Assembly: GCA_963695545.1 (NCBI GenBank)
Contig: OY968796.1
Coordinates: forward strand, 1,984,001 to 2,048,000
Origin: Terriglobia bacterium
Lineage (GTDB): Bacteria > Acidobacteriota > Terriglobia > Acidiferrales > UBA7541
DNA: 64,000 bases
Direction of reading: 5' to 3'
Below the pieces are notes generated by a model that saw nothing but the letters and a program-made list of their open reading frames with translations, did not search any database and was not told where the DNA came from. Positions 1,568 to 25,298 of the stretch are shown here, piece by piece. Each line of letters begins with the position of its first letter. Positions within the stretch are counted from its first letter, which is position 1. A program made the position numbers and the translations under genes.

Positions 1568-2107
1568 ATGAGCGCTCCATCCGCCACGATCAGGATAAGT
1601 TTTCAACTGAGTCCGCGCGAGTGGTACCGCGCAAACGTCGCCATCGCCACCGTCAATCTCCGCACGCTTCGCATTTTCGCGTGGGTCAGCGTGGCCCTGC
1701 TGCTCGCGTGTGTCGTGGTCAAGGCCGCAGGCACTGGCCGTCCGGCCGCGGCCGCAACGAACCTCTTGCCGCTCTTTGTGATTTTGCCGATCGCCGTGAT
1801 AATCGGAACTTACCTGGCGCCCTACCCCGGTTCGAGATCCGTGTATAAAAACAGCGCAAGCCTGAAGAACACCATCCAATACTCGTTCTCTGGCGACAGC
1901 GTCACCCAGAAATCCGCCGCCGGCCGCTCCGAAGTTCTGTGGACCGCCTATCCCAAAGCGCGGGAAACTCGAGATTGGTTTCTTCTCTACACACAAAAGC
2001 GCTTGGCCCATCCTTTGCCGAAGCGCGCCTTTGCGAACGAAAATGAGATCACGGAATTCCGCGACCTCGTTCGACGCCGCGTAAAAAATGCTTCTCTGCG
2101 CGGTTGA
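1568..2107 (+). CDS. YcxB-like membrane protein
   Basis: ATG at 1568. Two TM helices followed by W..Y.KARETRDWFLLY...PKRAF, a YcxB-type C-terminal motif. Confidence 0.7.
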   Translation: MSAPSATIRISFQLSPREWYRANVAIATVNLRTLRIFAWVSVALLLACVVVKAAGTGRPAAAATNLLPLFVILPIAVIIGTYLAPYPGSRSVYKNSASLKNTIQYSFSGDSVTQKSAAGRSEVLWTAYPKARETRDWFLLYTQKRLAHPLPKRAFANENEITEFRDLVRRRVKNASLRG

Positions 2108-2116
2108 TCGCGCCGG

Positions 2117-3439
2117 TCAGTCGCTCGTCGCCGGAATTTGATCGGACGCTTCGCGCGTCATCATTCCCGAGGCCACCAACAATTCCCGCGCCGATTCGCG
2201 CAGCCCCGGCCAGCGCCGCCAGAACCAGAACGCCCCAAACACGCAGGCGACGCCCCCCAGCGCCACAGCCACAGGCGCGCCAATCCGGTCGGCCGCGGCT
2301 CCCGCGATCAGCGCGCCGAGCGGCGCCATGCCTCCGGTCATCATCGAGTAGAGCGACATCACGCGCCCGCGCAGTCGATCGGGTGCCATGGCTTGCAACA
2401 GCGTGTTCGTCGCCGCCATGTCCACCATCATGAAAAATCCCGATGGCACAAGCACGGCCACCGAAACCCACATCCAGCGCGAAAACGCAAACAGCACGAG
2501 CGATGCGCCGAACCACGCCGCCGACACAAAGACCCAGCGCCCCAGGCCTCTCACGTCCCTCCGCGTCGCCAGCGCCAGCGCGCCGAACAGAGCGCCGACG
2601 CCCGTGGCTCCCATCAGCCACCCGAGCCCTTGCACGCCGCCGTGTAGAATTCTGTCGGCAAAAATCGGCATCAGCACCGTCACCGGCATGGCCACGAAAC
2701 TCACCAGGCCTACCAACAGCAGCAGCGCCCCCACCGGCCCGGTCTGCCGGGCGAATCGAAACCCTTCGATCACGTTTTCGATGGCCGAATCGTTTTCTTC
2801 GAGCGCGGCCGGTTGATCGATGCGCATCAGCGCGAGGCCGACGATCACGGCGATGTAACTCACCGCGTTCGCAAAGAAGCACCAGCCGACTCCCAGCGCG
2901 GCCACCAGAATTCCCGCAATCGCCGGTCCCGCGACGCGCGCGCCGTTGAACATCGAAGAGTTCAGCGCCACGGCGTTCATCAGATCCTCGCGCTCCACCA
3001 TCTCCACCAGAAACGCCTGCCGCGCCGGAATGTCGAACGCGTTCACCACGCCCAGCATCGCCGCCAGCGTGATGATCTCCCAGACCGTCAGACGGCGCGC
3101 CAGCGCTAGGCCGGCCAGCGTGAACGCGACAATCATCGACGCGCTCTGCGTGGCGATCACCACCTTGTGCCGTTTCCAGCGATCGGCCACCAGGCCGCCC
3201 AATGGCGCGAGCAGAAATATCGGGATTCGGCTCGCGAATCCCACCACGCCCAGCAGCAGCGACGATCCCGTCAGCCGGTAGACCAGCCAGGCCTCCGCGA
3301 TCGTCTGCATCCACGTGCCGATCAGCGATATGAATTGCCCGCCGAAGAACAGCTGGAAATTGCGGTGACGCAACGCGCGGAAGGTCGTTTTGCTCCAGTG
3401 AGGTTGCTTGGCCGCTTGCGATTGGGAACTGTCGTTCAT
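2117..3439 (-). CDS. MFS transporter (MFS_3/EntS-like)
   Basis: About 12 TM segments; FRALRHRNFQLFF, GGLVADRW, PARQA and LRGRVMS motifs. Confidence 0.9.
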   Translation of the reverse strand: MNDSSQSQAAKQPHWSKTTFRALRHRNFQLFFGGQFISLIGTWMQTIAEAWLVYRLTGSSLLLGVVGFASRIPIFLLAPLGGLVADRWKRHKVVIATQSASMIVAFTLAGLALARRLTVWEIITLAAMLGVVNAFDIPARQAFLVEMVEREDLMNAVALNSSMFNGARVAGPAIAGILVAALGVGWCFFANAVSYIAVIVGLALMRIDQPAALEENDSAIENVIEGFRFARQTGPVGALLLLVGLVSFVAMPVTVLMPIFADRILHGGVQGLGWLMGATGVGALFGALALATRRDVRGLGRWVFVSAAWFGASLVLFAFSRWMWVSVAVLVPSGFFMMVDMAATNTLLQAMAPDRLRGRVMSLYSMMTGGMAPLGALIAGAAADRIGAPVAVALGGVACVFGAFWFWRRWPGLRESARELLVASGMMTREASDQIPATSD

Positions 3440-3587
3440 CTTCGATGGATGTCTATATTCTAGCGCAGCCGGCCTTCTCCGTGCCGCACGCGAAATCGCG
3501 CGTTGCGAAAACCAAACGCGAAGCGCAGTGGGGCGGCGGATTGTCGGTGCGTTCTTAGATGCTGTTTTGCGGAATGCTTTCGAGCCG

Positions 3588-4310
3588 TCAGGCCTGCAGC
3601 TTCTGCCGCTTGCTCGCTTCGCGCAGCCGGAACCAGATTCCCGGCACCAGGCTCAGGTAGAAAACCGCCCAGTAAATTTTCATGTTGAATGTGAATGCGT
3701 AAAGGAGTCCTCCCAGCGCGATGGCCCAGTGAAACACTTCTCCCAAAATTCCATTCAGCCAGTGCGCCTTGTTTCCTGCCGCAGGAACCCGCGGAAAGAT
3801 CGAATACCACAAGCGCGGCGCGCGCGCGCAATAGGCGCGGTAAGTTTCTCCCTGCGTCGCGGAAAGTTCCGCTTCTTCTCGCAGAATCAATCGGTAATGA
3901 AACACCACGATGGCCATGAACAGGAAAACGAAGCCCGCGCGGCTCGCCACCAATCCCACCCCCACGGCCATCAATATATTTCCGAGATAAAGCGGATTGC
4001 GCACATGGCGAAAAGGCCCGTCGGCCAGTAGGCGATCCGTCACTACCGTCCGCGATTGCATCACCGCGGTTTGCAAATACGCCGTGCCCCAGCTGCGCAG
4101 CGCCGCCGAAATCACCAGCACCGCCGCCGCGAACACAAACACGGCGCGGGTCCACGCGAAAAGGCTCATCTGCGGAAAATGCAGCGCCAGCAATTGAGCC
4201 ACCCACTCGCCCGCCTGTACGTGGTCCAGCCAGTAGAATTCAAAGCCGATCAGGAAAATCGAGATGATGAACCAGCGGCGATTCCGAAATTCAAACAGCG
4301 TGGCCTTCAT
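3588..4310 (-). CDS. Isoprenylcysteine carboxyl methyltransferase/PEMT-family membrane protein
   Basis: GPFRHVRNPLYLG and EE..L....G..Y..Y motifs. Confidence 0.85.
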   Translation of the reverse strand: MKATLFEFRNRRWFIISIFLIGFEFYWLDHVQAGEWVAQLLALHFPQMSLFAWTRAVFVFAAAVLVISAALRSWGTAYLQTAVMQSRTVVTDRLLADGPFRHVRNPLYLGNILMAVGVGLVASRAGFVFLFMAIVVFHYRLILREEAELSATQGETYRAYCARAPRLWYSIFPRVPAAGNKAHWLNGILGEVFHWAIALGGLLYAFTFNMKIYWAVFYLSLVPGIWFRLREASKRQKLQA

Positions 4311-4408
4311 CGAATCTCCGTCGGCCTCTGCCGTCGCGTCGCGCTTTTAGCCGCGCGCGGCCGCAAGCGCGTGCTCTTCTTGAATTACGCAAGGGAATCA
4401 ATCGAAGT

Positions 4409-5572
4409 TCAATCGGTGAAGACGATGCCTACCGCGGTTTCATCCTTGTTGCGCGCCGGCTCGATGCGCACCACGGTGCCGCGCAGCCGCATCGGCGCGT
4501 TGCCGGAATCCCCGCCGCCGGGGCTGTCGATCAAAACCTGCAATTCCGATTGCAGCTTGGGGCTGTGCGCCAAATTCACCAGCGCTCCGTGCAAACTGAG
4601 ATCGCGAATCACAGTTTCTTCCTCAAAAGCTTTTCCTTCGCCGGTAAACCCCGTGATCCGCGCGCGGAAGTGCGCTTCGCGCCGCAGTCCTTCGGCCACG
4701 TTCGGAATCACCACGCCGAATTCTTTTTGCCCAACCGTGAGCACCATTCCTTCCGTCGCCGCCCACACGTTCGCAAAACTCCCGCGCGCCGCGCGCAAAA
4801 TCGCGTCGATGGCTTTGTCGGACGAATCCGGGTCGTGGTGAAAAAGCACCAAGTTGCGCACGCCGGCCTCTTCCGCAATACGCACGCCTTCGAGCCAGCT
4901 CGAATGTCCCCATCCCTTGCGCGTCGAGGCCAGTTGTTCGGGCGTGAATTGCGCGTCGTTCACGAACACGTCCGCGCCGGCGGCCAGCTCGCGAAGGTTG
5001 CGGTCCAGCTTCGCGTCGCCCGGCTCGTTGTCCGTCGCATAAACGATCGTGCCCGCCGGCGTCTCGAACCGAAATCCCAGGCAGCCCTGCGGATGATTCA
5101 GCCAGCACGCCGTCACGCGCGTGCCTTTCACATCGAGCGTTTCGCCGCCGCCCACTTCCGTAAATTCGCGCCCCGCCGACATGGCGCTCAAATCCACCGG
5201 AAAATATGGATGCGCCATCTGCGCTTCAAAAACGCGCTTCAAACTATCGCGCCCCAGGAATTCCGAGCGGAAACTGTAAAAATGGAACCGATTCTGCGGC
5301 GCGTAGAGCGGCGAAAAAAATGGCAACCCTTGAATGTGGTCCCAGTGATAGTGCGTGACGAAAATGTGCGCGCGGACCGGATCCTCGCCGCTCGCCCACT
5401 GTTTCCCCAGCATGCGCAGCCCGGTCCCGCAATCCAGAATGAATCGCGTGCCGTCCGGCGCGGTCAGCTCAAGGCAAGGCGTGTTTCCGCCATAGCGCCA
5501 AGTGTCGCGGTCCACGGTCGGCGTCGAACCGCGCACTCCCCAGAAACTCAGCGTGGCTGCGGATTTGGGCAT
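4409..5572 (-). CDS. MBL-fold metallohydrolase with C-terminal PilZ-like domain
   Basis: WGVRGS, YGGNT, DCGTG, HYHWDH (HxHxDH), GWGHS and FHHDP motifs; C-terminal DLSLHG...GTVVR...VGIVF beta-barrel. Confidence 0.85.
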   Translation of the reverse strand: MPKSAATLSFWGVRGSTPTVDRDTWRYGGNTPCLELTAPDGTRFILDCGTGLRMLGKQWASGEDPVRAHIFVTHYHWDHIQGLPFFSPLYAPQNRFHFYSFRSEFLGRDSLKRVFEAQMAHPYFPVDLSAMSAGREFTEVGGGETLDVKGTRVTACWLNHPQGCLGFRFETPAGTIVYATDNEPGDAKLDRNLRELAAGADVFVNDAQFTPEQLASTRKGWGHSSWLEGVRIAEEAGVRNLVLFHHDPDSSDKAIDAILRAARGSFANVWAATEGMVLTVGQKEFGVVIPNVAEGLRREAHFRARITGFTGEGKAFEEETVIRDLSLHGALVNLAHSPKLQSELQVLIDSPGGGDSGNAPMRLRGTVVRIEPARNKDETAVGIVFTD

Positions 5573-19082: not shown

Positions 19083-19296
19083 TTGGCAGAATCCTCGATG
19101 CCGTGCAGATTTTTGCCCGATCCCAAAACCATGGGAACGGGAAGCGCCGAGCGGGCACGGTTTCTCCAAGCCGAATGGAGCGCCCGGCGGGAAACTATAG
19201 TTTGAAGGATTTGCGAGCTTCGCGCAACCCGCAAGATGGGGAATTATATACATGACTCCCGTAAGGAAACAAGGGACTTTAAGGGCGATTATGGAC

Positions 19297-19344
19297 TTGA
19301 CAAAGTAACGCGAATCTGGTAGCCTCTGTGTAGTGAGGCTGCCA
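19297..19344 (+). promoter_or_regulatory. Transposase promoter and RBS-sequestering hairpin
   Basis: TTGACA (19297-302)-17 bp-TAGCCT (19320-25). TGGTAGCCTC (19317-26) pairs with GAGGCTGCCA (19335-44), which covers the RBS and the A of ATG. Confidence 0.6.
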
Positions 19345-20327
19345 TGAACCTAATAGACGTTACACGAAAGTTCGCCAGCAAGGAATCCTGCTTAGAGTAT
19401 CTCGCCGCGATGCGCTGGCCGAATGGTATCACGTGCACACACTGTGGCGTTGTGGGCGACGATCAATTCCGCAAGTTCACGACACGCGAGACTGAGCGCA
19501 CTCGATTCAGCGCGAAGAAACAGAAGACGGTCACCGTCCGCGTGCCGTCGCGCAGCCTGTACGAGTGCAAGGGATGCGGCTATCAATTCAGCGCGACCAC
19601 GGGCACGGTGTTCCACGATTCACACTTGCCGCTCGAAAAGTGGTTTATGGCGATTGCCCTGATTCTTGAAGCGAAGAAAGGAATCAGCGCCCTACAGGTC
19701 TGCCGCAACCTCGGAATCCCTGAGAGTAGCTACCGGACGGTCTGGTATCTCTGCCATCGCATCCGTGAAGCCACACAAGAGACCGGCTTACTATCCGGCA
19801 TCGTTGAGACGGACGAGACCTATCTGACGCCTAAGAAGCCCCGCAAGGGCGCTCCCAAGGTCAAGAAAGACAAGCGAGACGTGGTGCTCGGAATGATCGA
19901 ACGCGGCGGTCGGCTGCGAATGGTTCCGATGCGAGACGCGAAGATGTCGATAATCGAGCCGATCATTGCGAAGCACATCGCTCCCGATGCCACGCTGCAA
20001 ACCGACGAACATCCCACATACGCGATAATCGGCAAGCGCCGCTTTCCCGGCAGGCACCGCGCGATCAATCACATGCGCAGTTACGCGGACGGCGACAATA
20101 CGACGAACTCAATTGAGAATGCGTTTTCGTTGCTCAAGCGCGGCGTGTACGGCACGTTCCACAAGGTTTCGATAAAGCATCTTGGCCGGTACTGCAACGA
20201 GTTTTCGTATCGGTTCAACCGACGCGGGAATCAGTCGGAGATGTTCGGCGAGACCGTGAAGGGATTGCTAAAGGGCCAGCCGTTGCCGCTCAAGAAGCTG
20301 ACTGCTTCCGAAACATCGGAGTCTTAG
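19344..20327 (+). CDS. IS1595-family DDE transposase
   Basis: RWPNG..CTHC...CKGC Zn ribbon, KKGISALQ HTH, VETDETY, LQTDE, TNSIENAFS and HL.RY..EF.YRFN motifs. Confidence 0.95.
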   Translation: MNLIDVTRKFASKESCLEYLAAMRWPNGITCTHCGVVGDDQFRKFTTRETERTRFSAKKQKTVTVRVPSRSLYECKGCGYQFSATTGTVFHDSHLPLEKWFMAIALILEAKKGISALQVCRNLGIPESSYRTVWYLCHRIREATQETGLLSGIVETDETYLTPKKPRKGAPKVKKDKRDVVLGMIERGGRLRMVPMRDAKMSIIEPIIAKHIAPDATLQTDEHPTYAIIGKRRFPGRHRAINHMRSYADGDNTTNSIENAFSLLKRGVYGTFHKVSIKHLGRYCNEFSYRFNRRGNQSEMFGETVKGLLKGQPLPLKKLTASETSES

Positions 20328-20445
20328 GGCCGCGCTTGCCGGAAGTTTTTATATCGCTTTGCGGCTTCGGCTTTGAGCCGAGCAGCGCCGCGAGCACCGC
20401 GTCAAACTTCTTCTTTTCGACCAGCACGCTTTTCTTTGTTTTCAT
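20290..20445 (-). CDS. Small basic protein (51 aa), convergent with and overlapping the transposase 3' end
   Basis: MKTKKSVLVEKKKFDAVLAALLGSKPKP...; amphipathic helix plus basic tail. Confidence 0.45.
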   Translation of the reverse strand: MKTKKSVLVEKKKFDAVLAALLGSKPKPQSDIKTSGKRGPKTPMFRKQSAS

Positions 20446-20503
20446 GAGTTTTCCACATCCTGAATGGATTTCCACAGCCATGTCGGAAAAATCCGGTAGT
20501 GAC

Positions 20504-20776
20504 TCATTTTGAATTGGGCCTTTGGGACAGGTGGCAGGGAGTCTTGTGGACGCCGGAGACCGGACGTGTGACATAAAACACGGGTTCGACGGCGGAAATC
20601 TGCTTAACCAAGAAGGGGGCCAACTGGAACTGCTTATAGCCCTCCTTCAGGGCATCGTCATACGAAGAAAAGAAGTCCACAATAGTTTCCCCGTGAATAA
20701 GCACGAACTTGCCCTCGTGCGCTTTCAGCTCGGGGAGGTTCTTCCGGTAGGTTTCCAGCTCTTTTTCTAAGGCCAT
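20504..20776 (-). CDS. Small passenger protein, DUF5678-like
   Basis: LEKELETY...HEGKFVLIHG..IVDFF.SY.DAL..GY..F...PFLVKQI pattern; the stop codon lies inside the TIR. Confidence 0.6.
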   Translation of the reverse strand: MALEKELETYRKNLPELKAHEGKFVLIHGETIVDFFSSYDDALKEGYKQFQLAPFLVKQISAVEPVFYVTRPVSGVHKTPCHLSQRPNSK

Positions 20777-20871
20777 CTTGGCACCAGTTGTTGTCACTTT
20801 TATACCTCAGATGCCAGAAGAGATGCGGGGATAGTACAAAACGGTTTCTCTGGGCGCAACACCAATTTGCC

Positions 20872-21720
20872 CTACGCGGCCTTCTCTTTCGACATCTCCA
20901 TTATACGCACCAGCTCCTCAATTGTCCAAACGTGGTCCGAGACTCCCGCTTCCATCGCAGGGGTTACACGTAGTGTTTGATGCACGCGGCAGAAGTTATA
21001 GTGCATAAAGTGGAGTGCCACGGCCCAACGGTGATTGTCTAGCTTCTTAGAGAACGCATTTGTGAGCCGGGTAAAACGGCGCATCTTCATCCGCATAGTT
21101 AGGTTCTGGCGTTCCACGAAGCTGGTAGAAATGTGCTTTGGATTCGGCTGACCTACAATTTTGGTTTGTCTGCACCCGATATAGTCTGCGGGACTATATC
21201 GGACTTCTCCTTGTGCCCGATCTGAGCCGTACATCTTGACGAGCATCGCGTAGTCAATCTCAGTACCGAATGCGAATTCAACCGCCTGCAAATAGGCTTT
21301 GTGACCATCGCTGGTCAACTGCACGCGATTGGCAAGGCGCGAAGCCAAGTCGTACATGAAATGCTGCGCGTGCCAAGCGTTGCGGTCACCGATTCGCCAG
21401 CAGGGAACCAACTTTGTATCCGCGCAAATAGAAACCCAGGTCCACACGTCGCCGAACCCATGCTTGCCGCGCAGATCGTTCGGCACGTTCTTTTCTTTGG
21501 CATAGCAGAAGGACCAGATTTCATCGCACTGGACGCGCTTGCAGGGAAGATTAACCAACACGCGGCGCTGGTATTCTTCGCAAGCTTGGCCAATCGCTGG
21601 CATGAGCTTTAGGACAGTATTAAAAGCCACATCGCACATACGGGCCGTGGCTCGTAGTGAGTTCCCTTCTACGAGTGCCGAGATGATCTGCGCTTGCTTC
21701 TCTTTGTTTAAGCGATTCAT
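20872..21720 (-). CDS. IS1-family DDE transposase (single ORF, HTH plus DDE)
   Basis: EGNSLRATAR HTH, QCDEIWSF, TSDG...Y, TSFVERQNLTMR..MRRFTRLT..FSKK and TPAM motifs. Confidence 0.92.
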   Translation of the reverse strand: MNRLNKEKQAQIISALVEGNSLRATARMCDVAFNTVLKLMPAIGQACEEYQRRVLVNLPCKRVQCDEIWSFCYAKEKNVPNDLRGKHGFGDVWTWVSICADTKLVPCWRIGDRNAWHAQHFMYDLASRLANRVQLTSDGHKAYLQAVEFAFGTEIDYAMLVKMYGSDRAQGEVRYSPADYIGCRQTKIVGQPNPKHISTSFVERQNLTMRMKMRRFTRLTNAFSKKLDNHRWAVALHFMHYNFCRVHQTLRVTPAMEAGVSDHVWTIEELVRIMEMSKEKAA

Positions 21721-21728
21721 AATGTCTG

Positions 21729-21758
21729 ATTATGCTTGAGCGGCTCAAGGTGTGTCAA
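21729..21758 (-). promoter_or_regulatory. IS1 transposase promoter with internal palindromic operator; leaderless ATG
   Basis: TTGACA (21753-58)-18 bp-CATAAT (21729-34). CTTGAG-CGG-CTCAAG lies in the spacer; the ATG is 8 nt downstream of the -10. Confidence 0.65.
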
Positions 21759-21924
21759 GAGAAAAACGCAGAATCTTACGAACACTTGGCGCTCACTAAG
21801 TGCTGTACTGTCAATACGATGTGGATACACCTGCGTAATATCCGCAGGGTGCTCTGCAAGTTCGGCGTGCTAGACTAAGTCTTCTCTGCTAGAATCGGCG
21901 TGTCTGATACGGACATGGAGGTTC

Positions 21925-22446
21925 ATGGTCATGGATGATAAACTAAGTGGCGCTGTCGAAGTGCTGGTCGCGCAATTGAACGATCAAATGAAACAAGTGG
22001 CTGACACAAAAAGCACGATCAACGCGCTATTACGAAGTATGGGGAAAGAGGCGATGTTTCAGGATGTAAACGTGGAACAAGCGTCCGCGATTCGTCCAGA
22101 CCAGTTCTACGGAAAGGGTCTCGCAACTGCTGTTCAGGACTATCTCAAACGGCGAAAGCAAGCGTGCGGAGCGGATGAAATTCTCCGGGGACTAGAACAA
22201 GGTGGTTTTGATTTCCGCTCAGTATCATGGAAGGAAGCTGATCGTCGTCGGAGTCTATCAATCTCATTGGCAAAGAACAGCGTCACATTTCATCGGCTTC
22301 CCAACGGGACATTCGGTCTGCTGAGTTGGTACCCTGAGAATATTGGGAAGCAAGAGCCGCCAGCAAACAAAAAGCGCGGGCGGAAAGCGAAGAAGGCCAA
22401 GCCATCGGCTGAGGACGCTACAAAGCCTGAACAGGGGAAACCATGA
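21925..22446 (+). CDS. Passenger protein: N-terminal coiled coil plus winged-helix (HARE-HTH-like) domain and basic tail
   Basis: GGAGG RBS; FHRLPNGTFGLLSWYP resembles the wing motif of HARE-HTH/RNAP delta N-terminal domains. Confidence 0.6.
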   Translation: MVMDDKLSGAVEVLVAQLNDQMKQVADTKSTINALLRSMGKEAMFQDVNVEQASAIRPDQFYGKGLATAVQDYLKRRKQACGADEILRGLEQGGFDFRSVSWKEADRRRSLSISLAKNSVTFHRLPNGTFGLLSWYPENIGKQEPPANKKRGRKAKKAKPSAEDATKPEQGKP

Positions 22447-22518
22447 CCAGAAGGGATATGTGCCTAGATTGCCGGACGCCGTGCCTACCGAGCAGCCTAG
22501 GCCAAATTAAAGACAAGA

Positions 22519-22557
22519 CCCGCTTCCAGTAACCTTTGCGGGGGAGCTGGAAGCGGG
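22519..22557. terminator. Hairpin between convergent passenger genes
   Basis: CCCGCTTCCAG (22519-29) pairs with CTGGAAGCGGG (22547-57). Confidence 0.4.
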
Positions 22558-22598
22558 CCGTGGTAGGACGCAAAGATCGCGGCCATGAACCGTCGCGA

Positions 22599-22835
22599 TT
22601 ATACCTTTTTTGTTGACCAACGTGCCTTAGCTGCTTTACGGGCGATGGCCTTTCGCTTACTGGCGGAGAGACGCGCCGCTCGCGCCTTTCCGCCTTTAAG
22701 ACCACCTTTGCGCCCGATCTGGGCGAGATACTCTTTGACGGATGCTGTCTGTCTTGGTTCTTCTGTGGATAGCCGTACGATCTCAGCGGCCAGTTGATTT
22801 GGGTCTTTCGGGAGCGGCTTGCTTGAGCGCCTCAT
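22599..22835 (-). CDS. Small highly basic protein of the type found beside IS1-like transposases
   Basis: PKDPNQLA..IV...T and GRKGGLKGGKARA..LS...R..IA.KAA.ARW motifs. Confidence 0.8.
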   Translation of the reverse strand: MRRSSKPLPKDPNQLAAEIVRLSTEEPRQTASVKEYLAQIGRKGGLKGGKARAARLSASKRKAIARKAAKARWSTKKV

Positions 22836-22967
22836 GCATCACATGATGCACAATTCTTCGGGGCGTTTCAAGCCCCCTAAAAGCTCAAAATGAGTCACTA
22901 CCAAAAATCCGCTTGCAATTTCATTCGTATTCTCTTCGCCTACCCCTGACTGAAACGCAAGCAAGGC

Positions 22968-22997
22968 TTGACAGATTTATCCCGAACAGCGTAGATT
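22968..22997 (+). promoter_or_regulatory. sigma70-type promoter of the RNA cluster
   Basis: TTGACA (22968-73)-18 bp-TAGATT (22992-97); no credible ORF follows for about 530 bp. Confidence 0.6.
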
Positions 22998-23003
22998 GCA
23001 CCC

Positions 23004-23105
23004 TAGTAACAGCGACGGCCCACCACCCCAAGGGGTAGTGAGCCGGTTGCTGCTGCCACGCTAGCACGTGGCGGAAGTTCTGGGCGCATGCTACCGAGAA
23101 TTCCG
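23004..23105 (+). ncRNA. Structured RNA, three consecutive hairpins, unknown class
   Basis: CAGCGAC-GGC-CAC-ACCCC/GGGGT-GTG-GCC-GTTGCTG; GCCACG/CGTGGC; GGAAgTTCT/AGAATTCC. Confidence 0.45.
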
Positions 23106-23147
23106 TTCCTCGTCAACGTGGTTTCCGAATTTATTTTTTGTCGCACG

Positions 23148-23214
23148 GGGGGCGCCAGGTAGGGGACGTCGGTTTCCCACCCATTTCCCCTGGGTTCAAA
23201 TCCCAGCGCCTCCA
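23148..23214 (+). ncRNA. D-armless tRNA-like RNA with alanine identity (resembles the tmRNA tRNA-like domain)
   Basis: Acceptor GGGGGCG/CGCCTCC with G3:U70 and A73. T-arm CTGGG-TTCAAAT-CCCAG. Only 35 nt between the acceptor 5' strand and the T-arm; no D-stem; no encoded CCA. Confidence 0.6.
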
Positions 23215-23231
23215 CCCATGCGACTTTCAAC

Positions 23232-23325
23232 GGCGGGATAGCTTTAACGGTAAAGCCCCGGATTTATAATCCGAGGGTCTCCATGCGTACACATGGAGAT
23301 GTCAGTTCGACCCTGACTCCCGCCG
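23232..23325 (+). tRNA. Irregular tRNA, anticodon UAU, long variable arm (Ser/Sec-like body)
   Basis: Acceptor GGCGGGA/TCCCGCC with G73. D-arm GCTTTA-ACGG-TAAAGC. Anticodon arm (C)CGGA-TT-TAT-AA-TCCG(A). V-arm GTCTCCATG-CGTACA-CATGGAGAT. T-arm GTCAG-TTCGACC-CTGAC. Confidence 0.88.
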
Positions 23326-23530
23326 TCAAACTTTTAAGGACACTAGGAGAACGCACCTGATTTCGGATTGGAAACAAAGGTCTGCATCGAGTCTCCCCAA
23401 CCCCGCGTCGCCGGGATTGCCTGACTTGGCTGGTACCAGCCGAGCACCCGGTACCGGCTCTGACTGTATATGGTATCACTATAATTTCGTCAAGGGAAAA
23501 CGATATGTCTCGTATCACACCGAGGTCAAC

Positions 23531-23867
23531 ATGATGAAACGCGTTTTTTTCTCGGCCTTAATCGCAGTTTGCATTGGTCAGGCTCCGCTTCTCGCGCAGG
23601 TGCGGCCTCCGGGTCGGCACCATCGAGACGACTTAGAACAGCGATACAACGATCTCAAATGTGCGCTCGTGATCGTTCAAAATGGGGGCGAATTCGGGAC
23701 AGGAGTTTTCATTGGCTCGGACGGAGATATTGCGACTGCCTCTCACGTCCTGGGCGACCGTACGTTCACATCTCAGGCCGACGGGACGATAACGACAAAC
23801 CTTGCGTTGCCCGCGTCACTCACCGTCATCGACAGCCAAGGAAAATCGACTACGGTGCCGGGAACAT
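23531..23867 (+). pseudogene. Secreted trypsin-like serine protease, 3'-truncated by IS3
   Basis: GAGG RBS, signal peptide MMKRVFFSALIAVC, GTGVFI...IATASHV (catalytic His motif); the Ser motif is absent. Confidence 0.75.
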
Positions 23868-23932
23868 TGACCTGACCGGGGTTTTTTGTACCAGCGGGAG
23901 TGAGAGAGAATTCACTCTGGAGGGAAGCTGGT

Positions 23933-24211
23933 ATGCCGATGAGGAGATACAAGCCGGAGCAGATCGTCACGCTGCTGCGGCAAGTTGAAGTTGAAATCGC
24001 CAACGGAAAGAGCACCCCACAAGCCTGCAAGGAAGCCGAGATCACCGCGCAGACCTACTACCGCTGGCGGAAGGAATACGGCGGCCTGAAGTTGGATCAA
24101 GCGAAACGCCTCAAAGAGTTGGAGCGGGAAAACGCCAAGCTGAAACGGTTGGTGGCGGAGCTTTCGTTGGAGAAGCAAATTCTGAAGGATGTGGCAGAGG
24201 GAAACTTCTAA
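23933..24211 (+). CDS. IS3 transposase OrfA
   Basis: HTH (TYYRWRKEYGG) and leucine zipper (LKELERENAKLKRLVAEL); ends in the slippery heptamer G GGA AAC (24199-205). Confidence 0.92.
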   Translation: MPMRRYKPEQIVTLLRQVEVEIANGKSTPQACKEAEITAQTYYRWRKEYGGLKLDQAKRLKELERENAKLKRLVAELSLEKQILKDVAEGNF

Positions 24212-25077
24212 GCCCTGAGCGGCGACGTAGCGCGGTGGAGCATGCACGCGAGAGCTACCAAGTATCAGAGCGGCATGCCTGCCGGTTGCTGGGGCAGTGG
24301 AGAGGGACACAACGCTACGAGGTGATCCACCGAACGGATGAAGACGCGCTGACGCGAGACATCGTGGCGCTGGCCAGCGAGTACGGGCGCTTCGGCTATC
24401 GGAGGATCACGGCGCTGTTGCAAGCACGGGGCTGGTATGTGGGCAAGGATCGGGTGCAGCGGATCTGGCGGCGCGAAGGGCTGAAAGTGCCGCAGGGACA
24501 AAGGCCGCGAGGAAGGCTGTGGTTGAACGACGGATCGTGTGTTCGTCTCCGGCCGGAACGAGCCAACCATGTGTGGAGCTACGATTTCGTGAGCGCGATG
24601 ACCCACGACGGCCGAACACTGCGAATGCTGACGCTGATCGACGAATACACGCGGGAGTGCCTGGCGATCCGCGTGGCGAGAAGGCTGGGGAGATACGAAG
24701 TGATCGAAGCGCTGGCGGACGTGATGCTTTACCGGGGAATTCCGGAACATATTCGCTCGGACAACGGCCCGGAGTTCGTGGCCAAGGAGCTGAGGAGTTG
24801 GCTGGCGAAGGTGGGAACGGGGACGCTGTACATCGAACCGGGAAGCCCTTGGGAGAATGGCTACTGCGAAAGCTTCAACGGGAAATTGCGCGATGAATGT
24901 TTGAACGGAGAGATTTTTTACTCGCTGAAGGAAGCGCAGATCGTGATCGAGAAATGGCGGATGGTGTACAACACGCTGCGTCCGCACTCAGCGCTGGGCT
25001 ACAGGCCACCGGCGCCGGTGGCCTGTAGCCCCTTGGTGCCGCCAATTCTCGGTTCGCCGTCGACGGCTGTGATGTAG
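24199..25077 (+). CDS. IS3 transposase OrfB, fused to OrfA by a -1 frameshift
   Basis: The -1 frame reads GKLLSPERRRSAVE... into the ORF at 24235; WSYDF, SDNGPEF, PWENGYCESFNG and RPHSALGY motifs. Confidence 0.92.
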   Translation, partial: GKLLSPERRRSAVEHARESYQVSERHACRLLGQWRGTQRYEVIHRTDEDALTRDIVALASEYGRFGYRRITALLQARGWYVGKDRVQRIWRREGLKVPQGQRPRGRLWLNDGSCVRLRPERANHVWSYDFVSAMTHDGRTLRMLTLIDEYTRECLAIRVARRLGRYEVIEALADVMLYRGIPEHIRSDNGPEFVAKELRSWLAKVGTGTLYIEPGSPWENGYCESFNGKLRDECLNGEIFYSLKEAQIVIEKWRMVYNTLRPHSALGYRPPAPVACSPLVPPILGSPSTAVM

Positions 25078-25298
25078 ACTCTCTCATTCACCGTGGTACA
25101 AAAACTCGGGCTGGTCATAAGGACAAGCCTAAATCAAGGGAGTCAACTATATAATTCCCGCAAGATGCGCGCGCGTGACGTGATTCAAAACCAATTTGGT
25201 CGCACGCTGGCGCGACGTGGCTGACGGTCGCCAACCGCGGGCGCGTCCGGTACAATAAATGGCGTGAACCCATCGATAGAAAACGCATAGGAGCTGCC

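Follow-up and report, generated by a model that had tools for sequence, protein, structure and literature searches.

Among the irregular transfer RNAs (tRNAs) of bacteria, the allo-tRNAs described by Mukai et al. (2017; PMC5389517) carry the anticodon UAU more often than any other. The same paper reports long-armed acidobacterial allo-tRNA(UAU) with a suspected tie to transposable elements, and suggests a non-translational role for most allo-tRNA(UAU). The natural role of this group, the most abundant irregular tRNA group of bacteria, has been a question since 2017. Here, we describe a tRNA(UAU) that is carried as cargo by a transposon of the IS1595 family of insertion sequences (IS) in the genome of a Terriglobia bacterium (Acidobacteriota; assembly GCA_963695545.1). 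The window, that is the whole stretch of DNA analysed, comprises 64,000 nt of contig OY968796.1 (positions 1,984,001 to 2,048,000); positions refer to it unless the host genome (G000; 4.16 Mb, 60.6% G+C) is named. In the transposase clade of this element the tRNA is an associated cargo, transposase codons matching its anticodon are fixed, and anticodon and codons have switched jointly.

The window tRNA resembles allo-tRNA(UAU) in its long variable arm, in bearing UAU on a serine- or selenocysteine-like body, in its occurrence in soil acidobacteria and in the suspected tie to transposable elements (PMC5389517; PMC7609411). The text of Mukai et al. (2017) and the one supplementary file searched name no IS family and contain nothing on matching codons; the supplement lists 186 rows with UAU and contains the string 'transpos' 0 times. 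An 11-mer from the window tRNA is absent from the supplementary table, which does not contain this tRNA. The window tRNA shares with the allo-tRNAs the long variable arm, a tRNASec-like D arm and a non-serine anticodon, but lacks their 12-bp 8/4 or 9/3 branch: it folds with a 7/5 (Rfam) or 8/5 (ARAGORN) branch, the latter being possible only if C-1 pairs with G73, and its T stem has 5 bp. Among its relatives, tRNA scaffolds C and D have an 8/4 branch, and the tRNAs of L025, L026, L029, L042, L050 and L073 show such a branch by eye; scaffold D begins like the 'major' UAU type of the supplement (PMC5389517). The window tRNA is not a bacterial selenocysteine tRNA (tRNASec, selC) either, as its anticodon is UAU and the best-scoring Rfam family is tRNA, not tRNA-Sec. 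By its branch, it is no allo-tRNA(UAU) in the strict sense, although it works like one.

Papers on allo-tRNAs since 2018 appear, by title and abstract, to be engineering uses or reviews. In the literature searched, no paper dealt with a link between IS1595 and tRNAs, with covariation of codon and anticodon, or with an IS-borne decoder of its own sentinel codons. A first-pass annotation of the window had proposed a candidate undescribed system; in part, however, it had been described, as allo-tRNA(UAU) and its suspected transposon tie were already on record (PMC5389517). The RNA is now tied to a defined carrier, an IS1595 clade with verified ends, and to defined targets, so that its role becomes directly testable.

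Two further systems are close in mechanism. In Streptomyces, the chromosomal bldA gene encodes a cognate leucine tRNA, tRNA-Leu(UUA), which controls host regulators via TTA codons, and tRNAs of phages match the codon usage of the phage. As a comparison of mechanism only, the window element shares with bldA a rare codon at conserved places and a matching anticodon, so that few places in target genes would tie translation to one dedicated tRNA; it differs in that tRNA and targets travel together on a transposon and that the anticodon is at odds with the tRNA body. As with phage tRNAs, the decoder arrives on a mobile element which uses the codons in question more than its host does. Unlike them, two or three fixed codons are concerned rather than a general bias, and the carrier is an IS of 2-3.6 kb. 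Members of the IS1595 family have short terminal inverted repeats (TIRs) and an 8-bp target site duplication (TSD), and some carry passenger genes (ISfinder description). The window element agrees with the family in these traits and in a DDE transposase with N-terminal zinc ribbon. In contrast to other members, the passenger of its clade is a tRNA which is kept clade-wide and matched to codons of the transposase.

tRNA cargo of one transposase clade

The survey comprised 172 loci, each with an intact transposase related to that of the window; copies with internal stops had been removed. Before this removal, the loci came from the window, a second copy in the host genome (copy 2), 400 genomes of the phylum (12), genome contigs (79) and metagenome contigs (80). 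Within 3 kb downstream of the transposase, ARAGORN predicted 37 tRNA(UAU) of 83-97 nt and five long tRNA(UAA), with one further anticodon call being ambiguous. Up to 3 kb upstream it predicted six tRNAs, none of them with UAU; the sequence surveyed amounted to 420 kb downstream and 363 kb upstream. Rfam added three tRNA(UAU) of ~105 nt that ARAGORN had overlooked. In a FastTree phylogeny of 166 full-length transposases, all tRNA carriers fell into a single clade of 61 members (support 1.0), in which the anticodon was UAU in 37, UAA in five and UAC in one. Outside the clade, tRNA(UAU) was present at 0 of 105 transposase loci.

TIRs (consensus GATTATGCACTTGACACAGA) were detected in 30 of the 61 clade elements, and an exact 8-bp TSD in nine; in several others the duplication was shifted by 1-2 bases. 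The long tRNA lay inside the TIRs in all 23 TIR-bearing elements with such a tRNA, a positive outcome of the test proposed when the window was first annotated.

The tRNAs belong to at least five unrelated scaffolds, which have in common the anticodon UAU, the long variable arm and mostly G73. The nearest homologue of the window tRNA was found in L038, an element with a 53% identical transposase, of which only the tRNA aligns with the window. Compensatory changes relative to the window tRNA affect three stems of the L038 tRNA (anticodon, variable and T), and its D stem retains five of six pairs. The remainder of the window cassette behaves differently. Its leader, a mini tRNA-like RNA, the region following the tRNA and a protease fragment had no counterpart at the other 171 loci or in the rest of the genome. 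A conserved companion tRNA was sought with ARAGORN at a lowered threshold and found upstream in only five of 18 elements, with unrelated sequences; Rfam found just one tRNA in every close relative in which it gave a match. The conserved cargo is therefore the tRNA(UAU) only, and leader, mini RNA and protease fragment are unique to the window copy. Of the two tRNA-like genes initially described as cargo, one is thus conserved and the other is not.

These unique parts, together with the truncation of the protease gene at the end of the cassette, resemble captured DNA, as would be expected if a host tRNA gene had been picked up once with its neighbouring DNA and remained without function. We consider such a chance capture barely credible, since the tRNA(UAU) recurs across the clade on differing scaffolds and with compensatory changes, and since the host tRNA set includes no UAU tRNA outside the two IS copies.

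Copy 2 encodes a transposase 93% identical to that of the window (G000 343647-344624) within an element at G000:C1:343540-346885 (L007 about 2050-5351). Its cargo likewise includes a tRNA(UAU), again with G73 and a long variable arm, which differs greatly in sequence, has a tRNASer-like D arm and lies on the opposite strand. The inverted repeats of copy 2 are 33 nt long, and no 8-bp TSD was found next to them; a 16-bp imperfect direct repeat (AGAATCA[A/G]CACTTCTG) is located a few bases outside each inverted repeat. Further cargo of copy 2 consists of a DUF3800 protein and a 138-aa open reading frame (ORF).

One clade member deviates in its cargo. The 2,785-bp element L027 5453-8237 (G189:C1), which has perfect 25-nt TIRs and is flanked by the TSD CCCAATTT, contains a tRNA of 74 nt with the anticodon GUC and an acceptor stem with G3:U70 and A73, i.e. 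an alanine-type identity on an aspartate anticodon; codon 277 of its transposase is still ATA. In the host genome, a 93-nt tRNA-like gene (G000:C1:2260191-2260283) has a serine-type acceptor stem, an encoded CCA and a two-base 'anticodon' according to ARAGORN, and may represent either an atypical selC or a further irregular tRNA. Two other ARAGORN predictions (G000 419492 and 3061455) lie in GC-rich sequence and were dismissed as apparent false positives.

Sentinel codons and a joint switch of codon and anticodon

The window transposase contains AUA at codons 4, 203, 228 and 277. Codons 4 and 277, here termed sentinel codons, were compared in 54 clade sequences. Codon 4 was ATA in 42 and ATT or ATC in one of them, and codon 277 was ATA in 41 and ATT or ATC in none. 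Other columns with AUA as the only isoleucine codon gave ratios of 16/0, 18/0 and 11/0 in the full clade. The mixing of codons within alignment columns was assessed with 2000 shuffles in the first 17 tRNA-bearing transposases. AUA and AUU/AUC almost never occurred in one column, with a mixing score of 25 against an expected 366 +/- 23 and 0 of the 2000 shuffles as low. AUA was an extreme outlier among all codons (z -15.1 for mixing, +18.3 for column sharing); the mixing z of the other codons lay between -7.5 and +1.4, except for AUC, which mirrors AUA.

In the host, AUA accounts for 2.7 per 1000 codons and 5.5% of isoleucine codons and is among the five rarest sense codons; the host genes flanking the element contain none. 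The window transposase has 12 AUA per 1000 codons, and at the host rate four or more in 327 codons would be expected with P ~0.012. A third position lies in the 51-aa basic ORF at the 3' end of the transposase gene. This ORF, proposed from the window alone, proved to be conserved, as tblastn matches adjoin the clade transposases. The isoleucine of its x-I-K motif is encoded by ATA in 17 sequences. The sole ATC-coded isoleucine near the motif is two residues off and belongs to L031, an element without a detected tRNA.

The tRNAs with anticodon UAA coincide with a change of the sentinel codons. They belong to a subclade of seven transposases (68-88% identical) and were found in the five members with enough sequence. 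All seven have TTA at both sentinel places, TTA occurs at 0 of their 180 other leucine codons, and AUA is reduced to 0-2 per gene. The UAA tRNAs share their scaffold with three UAU tRNAs (L123, L129 and L159; 81% column identity). This common scaffold forms a cloverleaf of 26 pairs, 15 of them with compensatory changes, and has G73 in 8/8; the sole systematic difference between its UAA and UAU versions is anticodon position 36. As read from these alignments, a single change of anticodon was followed by changes at two codons, and outside these two places the genes of the subclade make no use of the new codon. A candidate for a second switch, the tRNA(UAC) of L147 with GTA at codon 277, was rejected as too thin: L058 combines GTA with a UAU tRNA, and L031 has GTA without a tRNA.

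Probable decoding of the element's own genes

We consider it probable that the element's tRNA serves as its own decoder of a few sentinel AUA codons in its own genes, two in the transposase gene (codons 4 and 277) and one in the small basic ORF. The output of both genes, and possibly the amino-acid sequence of their products, would then depend on the element tRNA. For the output, such a dependence of transposase and small ORF would follow from the rarity of AUA in the host. The coupling may either license or limit transposase synthesis and transposition. The constant anticodon across scaffolds and its covariation with the fixed codons suggest that the tRNA is most likely used on the ribosome to read these codons.

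One and the same scaffold carries either UAU or UAA, always with G73 and the long arm, which suggests that charging probably ignores the anticodon. The synthetases SerRS, LeuRS and AlaRS do not depend on the anticodon, LeuRS requires A73 and AlaRS requires G3:U70. The tRNAs of this scaffold have G73 and lack G3:U70, so that serine, attached by SerRS, is the best guess; provided that the tRNA is used in translation, we lean towards this amino acid. Mistranslation by the element tRNA, as suggested in the first-pass annotation, is possible, because the tRNA body looks like that of a serine tRNA.

A plainer explanation would be codon supplementation, in which a tRNA(UAU) charged with isoleucine via its anticodon speeds up the decoding of AUA and no codon is recoded. 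AUA is rare in the host, the small-ORF AUA position alternates with valine in relatives, and alignment column 378 (window codon 269) is isoleucine, valine or methionine outside the clade, all of which would favour this explanation. IleRS reads the anticodon. The scaffold that occurs with UAU also occurs with UAA and G73, and one body could not serve both IleRS and LeuRS. Moreover, supplementation leaves unexplained why AUA is not exchanged for AUU or AUC, which account for only 1 of 43 isoleucine codons at codon 4 and for 0 of 41 at codon 277, and why most AUA columns are not isoleucine-like in character. On balance, we regard supplementation as rather unlikely.

Several observations weigh against the proposed decoding of sentinel codons and against serine as the amino acid. 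The switch from UAU to UAA is one inherited event, its kin not being independent. Of the 61 clade members, 12 with at least 1.5 kb of downstream sequence had no detected tRNA, and several of these retain the sentinel codons; nor was a tRNA found in six members with less than 1.5 kb downstream. Alignment-profile scores at the AUA columns were all negative (A -2.5, T -3.1, V -4.7, S -7.1, I -11.2), with control codons being assigned correctly. Among the 166 sequences, serine occurs at codon 4 in three and at codon 277 in none, and valine occupies the AUA position of the small ORF in the relatives already mentioned. With TilS (180 bits) and three CAU tRNAs, the host is itself able to read AUA, so that the dependence on the element tRNA is not absolute and the element genes may be read in two ways. 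An RNA-library contig covering part of the tRNA (see below) could be accounted for by contaminating DNA. Finally, Mukai et al. (2017, PMC5389517) changed six allo-tRNA(UAU) to CUA; none of the variants suppressed amber codons in Escherichia coli, and toxicity was seen with two.

This last result bears on three of the alternatives. Charging that depends on the anticodon, as in codon supplementation, would account for the failure of the CUA variants (PMC5389517). The inactivity of all six in E. coli translation (PMC5389517) is also in line with a regulatory or processing RNA, or a partner in a toxin-antitoxin pair, that rides on the element. The tRNA gene, 94-2904 bp away from the transposase stop, occurs on the plus strand in 19 cases and on the minus strand in 18. 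This use of both strands, with minus-strand copies directly upstream of the small ORF, would suit such a non-translational role as well. That role predicts neither a constant anticodon across at least five scaffolds nor covariation with transposase codons, and is in our view improbable. The killing of E. coli by two of the six variants (PMC5389517) could, in turn, point to a function directed at the host, by mistranslation-based defence or addiction or by decoys for anticodon nucleases. The mini RNA, with its alanine identity (G3:U70 and A73) on the acceptor stem of the host transfer-messenger RNA (tmRNA), would fit such a function. Yet no defence gene, nuclease or toxin-antitoxin pair was conserved with the tRNA in the elements examined, their cargo proteins varying from element to element; the mini RNA is confined to the window copy, and the sentinel codons would remain unexplained. 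A host-directed role thus appears very improbable. Among the functions put forward at first, decoding of the element's own codons has gained evidence, whereas no support was found for host defence or the decoying of anticodon nucleases.

Returning to the decoding of sentinel codons, a more far-reaching version of it would be a private code, in which sentinel AUA or UUA is read as serine by the element tRNA and as isoleucine or leucine by host tRNAs. We put this forward tentatively, as a possibility that we would not bet on. One transposase gene would then give rise to two protein forms at a ratio set by the dose of the element tRNA, and programmed ambiguous decoding could act as a diffusible sensor of copy number or activity. 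Such a code might license transposition, if only the serine form works, or inhibit it in multicopy, if the serine form poisons. Were serine indeed inserted at isoleucine and leucine codons, a mobile element would keep its own deviation from the genetic code for self-control, and synthetic biology would gain a compact natural pair of tRNA and codon. Even if no more than licensing by a rare codon is involved, an IS that carries the decoder of its own sentinel codons had no counterpart in the literature searched.

Make-up of the window element

The features of the element are compiled in Table 1. It spans 5,921 bp (19239-25159) between a class-V aminotransferase gene and tkt. Its TIRs, its TSD and the match to NF033547 confirmed the original description as a single IS1595 transposon; that it contains two nested ISs and carries a cassette of RNAs was likewise upheld. 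The transposase scored 174.9 bits against NF033547 (IS1595; cut-off 75), 112.5 bits against PF12762 (DDE_Tnp_IS1595) and 39.4 bits against PF12760 (zinc ribbon), so that both the transposase type and the combination of TIRs with an 8-bp TSD, the latter criterion being that of ISfinder, place the element in this family. The closest public relatives of the transposase are labelled Candidatus Acidoferrum or Acidiferrales (Acidobacteriota).

Table 1 Features of the IS1595-family element in the window
Feature	Position	Strand	Details
TSD GCAAGATG, 8 bp	19231-19238 (left), 25160-25167 (right)		read from sequence
Left outer TIR, 22 nt	19239-19260	+	91% complementary to 25138-25159 (20/22)
Internal second copy of clade terminal motif (GGCGATTATGGACTTGACAAAG)	19284-19305	+	same as TSD-flanked left terminus of relative L124
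IS1595-family transposase, 327 aa	19344-20327	+	NCBIfam NF033547; Pfam PF12762 and PF12760
Sentinel AUA, transposase codon 4	19353-19355	+	alignment column 12
Sentinel AUA, transposase codon 277	20172-20174	+	alignment column 386; flanked by invariant S276 and K278-H279
51-aa basic ORF	20290-20445	-	convergent with transposase 3' end; AUA at codon 32 (20350-20352)
TSD AAAAATCC of IS1-like element, 8 bp	20487-20494, 22903-22910		read from sequence
Nested IS1-like element, 2,408 bp	20495-22902	-	perfect 18-nt TIRs (18/18)
Sigma-70-like promoter match	22968-22997	+	TTGACA-18-TAGATT, 10/12; consensus match only
Structured leader, 150 nt	22998-23147	+	-55.5 kcal/mol, z -2.5
Mini tRNA-like RNA, 70 nt	23148-23217	+	Rfam tmRNA 37.6 bits (gathering score 47); ARAGORN tRNA-Gly(UCC)
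Class-II tRNA, anticodon UAU (23265-23267)	23232-23325	+	Rfam tRNA 50.2 bits; ARAGORN
N-terminal fragment of secreted trypsin-like protein	23531-23875	+	cut by IS3; IS3-free form ends within ~4 codons
Nested IS3-family element, 1,250 bp	23868-25117	+	HTH_Tnp_1, rve; inverted repeats; genome copies
IS3 orfA	23900-24211	+	
IS3 orfB	24235-25077	+	
Right outer TIR	25138-25159	-	pairs with 19239-19260

The empty site was searched for in 20 relatives. The match reached the junction only in two genomes of the same genus (G403 and G404), in which the tkt locus is uninterrupted: CAACCCGCAAGAT continues directly into the tkt leader and start codon, and GCAAGATG is single-copy. The element is thus inserted DNA, and the RNA cluster does not belong to the locus itself; the search for an empty site in relatives had been proposed in the first-pass annotation.

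The left end (19239-19305) consists of two terminal motifs, the outer TIR, which served in the last transposition, and another 45 bp further in. The inner motif also occurs at both ends of copy 2. Inverted-repeat and genome copy searches revealed no right-hand partner of it within the element, so that two related ISs may have been combined in the window element as a hybrid.

The two nested ISs are insertions later than the IS1595 element. The IS1-like transposase is a weak match (48 bits, cut-off 100) and thus a distant IS1 relative. Passengers of this element are three unassigned ORFs of 97, 173 and 78 aa, the last of which is very basic, and no tRNA was found in it. The IS3-family element is one of nine copies in the host genome, the eight others being 99.8-100% identical. 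In two soil runs, possibly from the source sample, DNA contigs join position 23860 to 25121 without the IS3, so that an IS3-free form exists or was assembled. Around the IS, these contigs and the filled site differ by 10 extra bases, and no clean or matching 3-bp target duplication was found (CAT on the left, TAA on the right).

Without both inserts, the element consists of the transposase gene, the convergent 51-aa ORF, a promoter-like site, the 150-nt leader, the 70-nt tRNA-like RNA, the tRNA(UAU) and a trypsin-like fragment of 114 codons. The secreted protease of the first-pass annotation was reduced to this N-terminal fragment. It matched Trypsin_2 at positions 1-27 of 144 (E 0.0035); all its matches were weak and covered the first 27-75 profile positions only. 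The sigma70 promoter was upheld as a 10/12 match, but as a consensus match only.

The window tRNA(UAU) has G73 and no encoded CCA. In the minimum-energy fold, its variable arm has a stem of 9 bp, and its D arm can form 6 bp around a loop of 4 nt. The mini RNA in front of it has a good T arm and degenerate D and anticodon (UCC) arms. With host tmRNA (Rfam RF00023) it shares a T arm and an identical acceptor stem including G3:U70 and A73; it differs in lacking an mRNA-like domain and tag ORF, in scoring below the gathering threshold and in being confined to this copy of the element. A mere 17 nt take the place of 312 model positions, ARAGORN predicted no tmRNA there, and the real tmRNA of the host lies at G000 4087382-4087736. 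Weak Rfam matches in the cassette (Pxr, P31, mascRNA and others) were far below their gathering scores and were taken as chance. An RNA contig from the metatranscriptome of a different study covered 23091-23298 without mismatch, from the end of the leader across the mini RNA and into the tRNA, of which the first two thirds are included; another RNA-library contig covered 23495-23644. RNA contigs were limited to these two stretches, and missing coverage of the rest carries no weight. These contigs indicate presence in an RNA library and may reflect transcription, possibly as a single transcript.

Two further observations concern regions outside the window element. In a metagenomic relative, an Acido-Lenti-1 RNA motif (RF01687; 51.6 bits, gathering score 37) is located at L131 1297-1342, ~250 bp upstream of the transposase start. 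In the host genome, a 713-bp candidate for a miniature inverted-repeat transposable element (G000 3843140-3843852) was rejected, as its left arm had five mismatches and its interior was an ORF of the PEP-CTERM type. Its right arm is a solo right-end-like sequence (G000:C1:3843831-3843852; L008 1332-1353) with two mismatches to the TIR. It extends over the 3' end of an ORF of 177 aa that has both a signal peptide and a PEP-CTERM-like tail.

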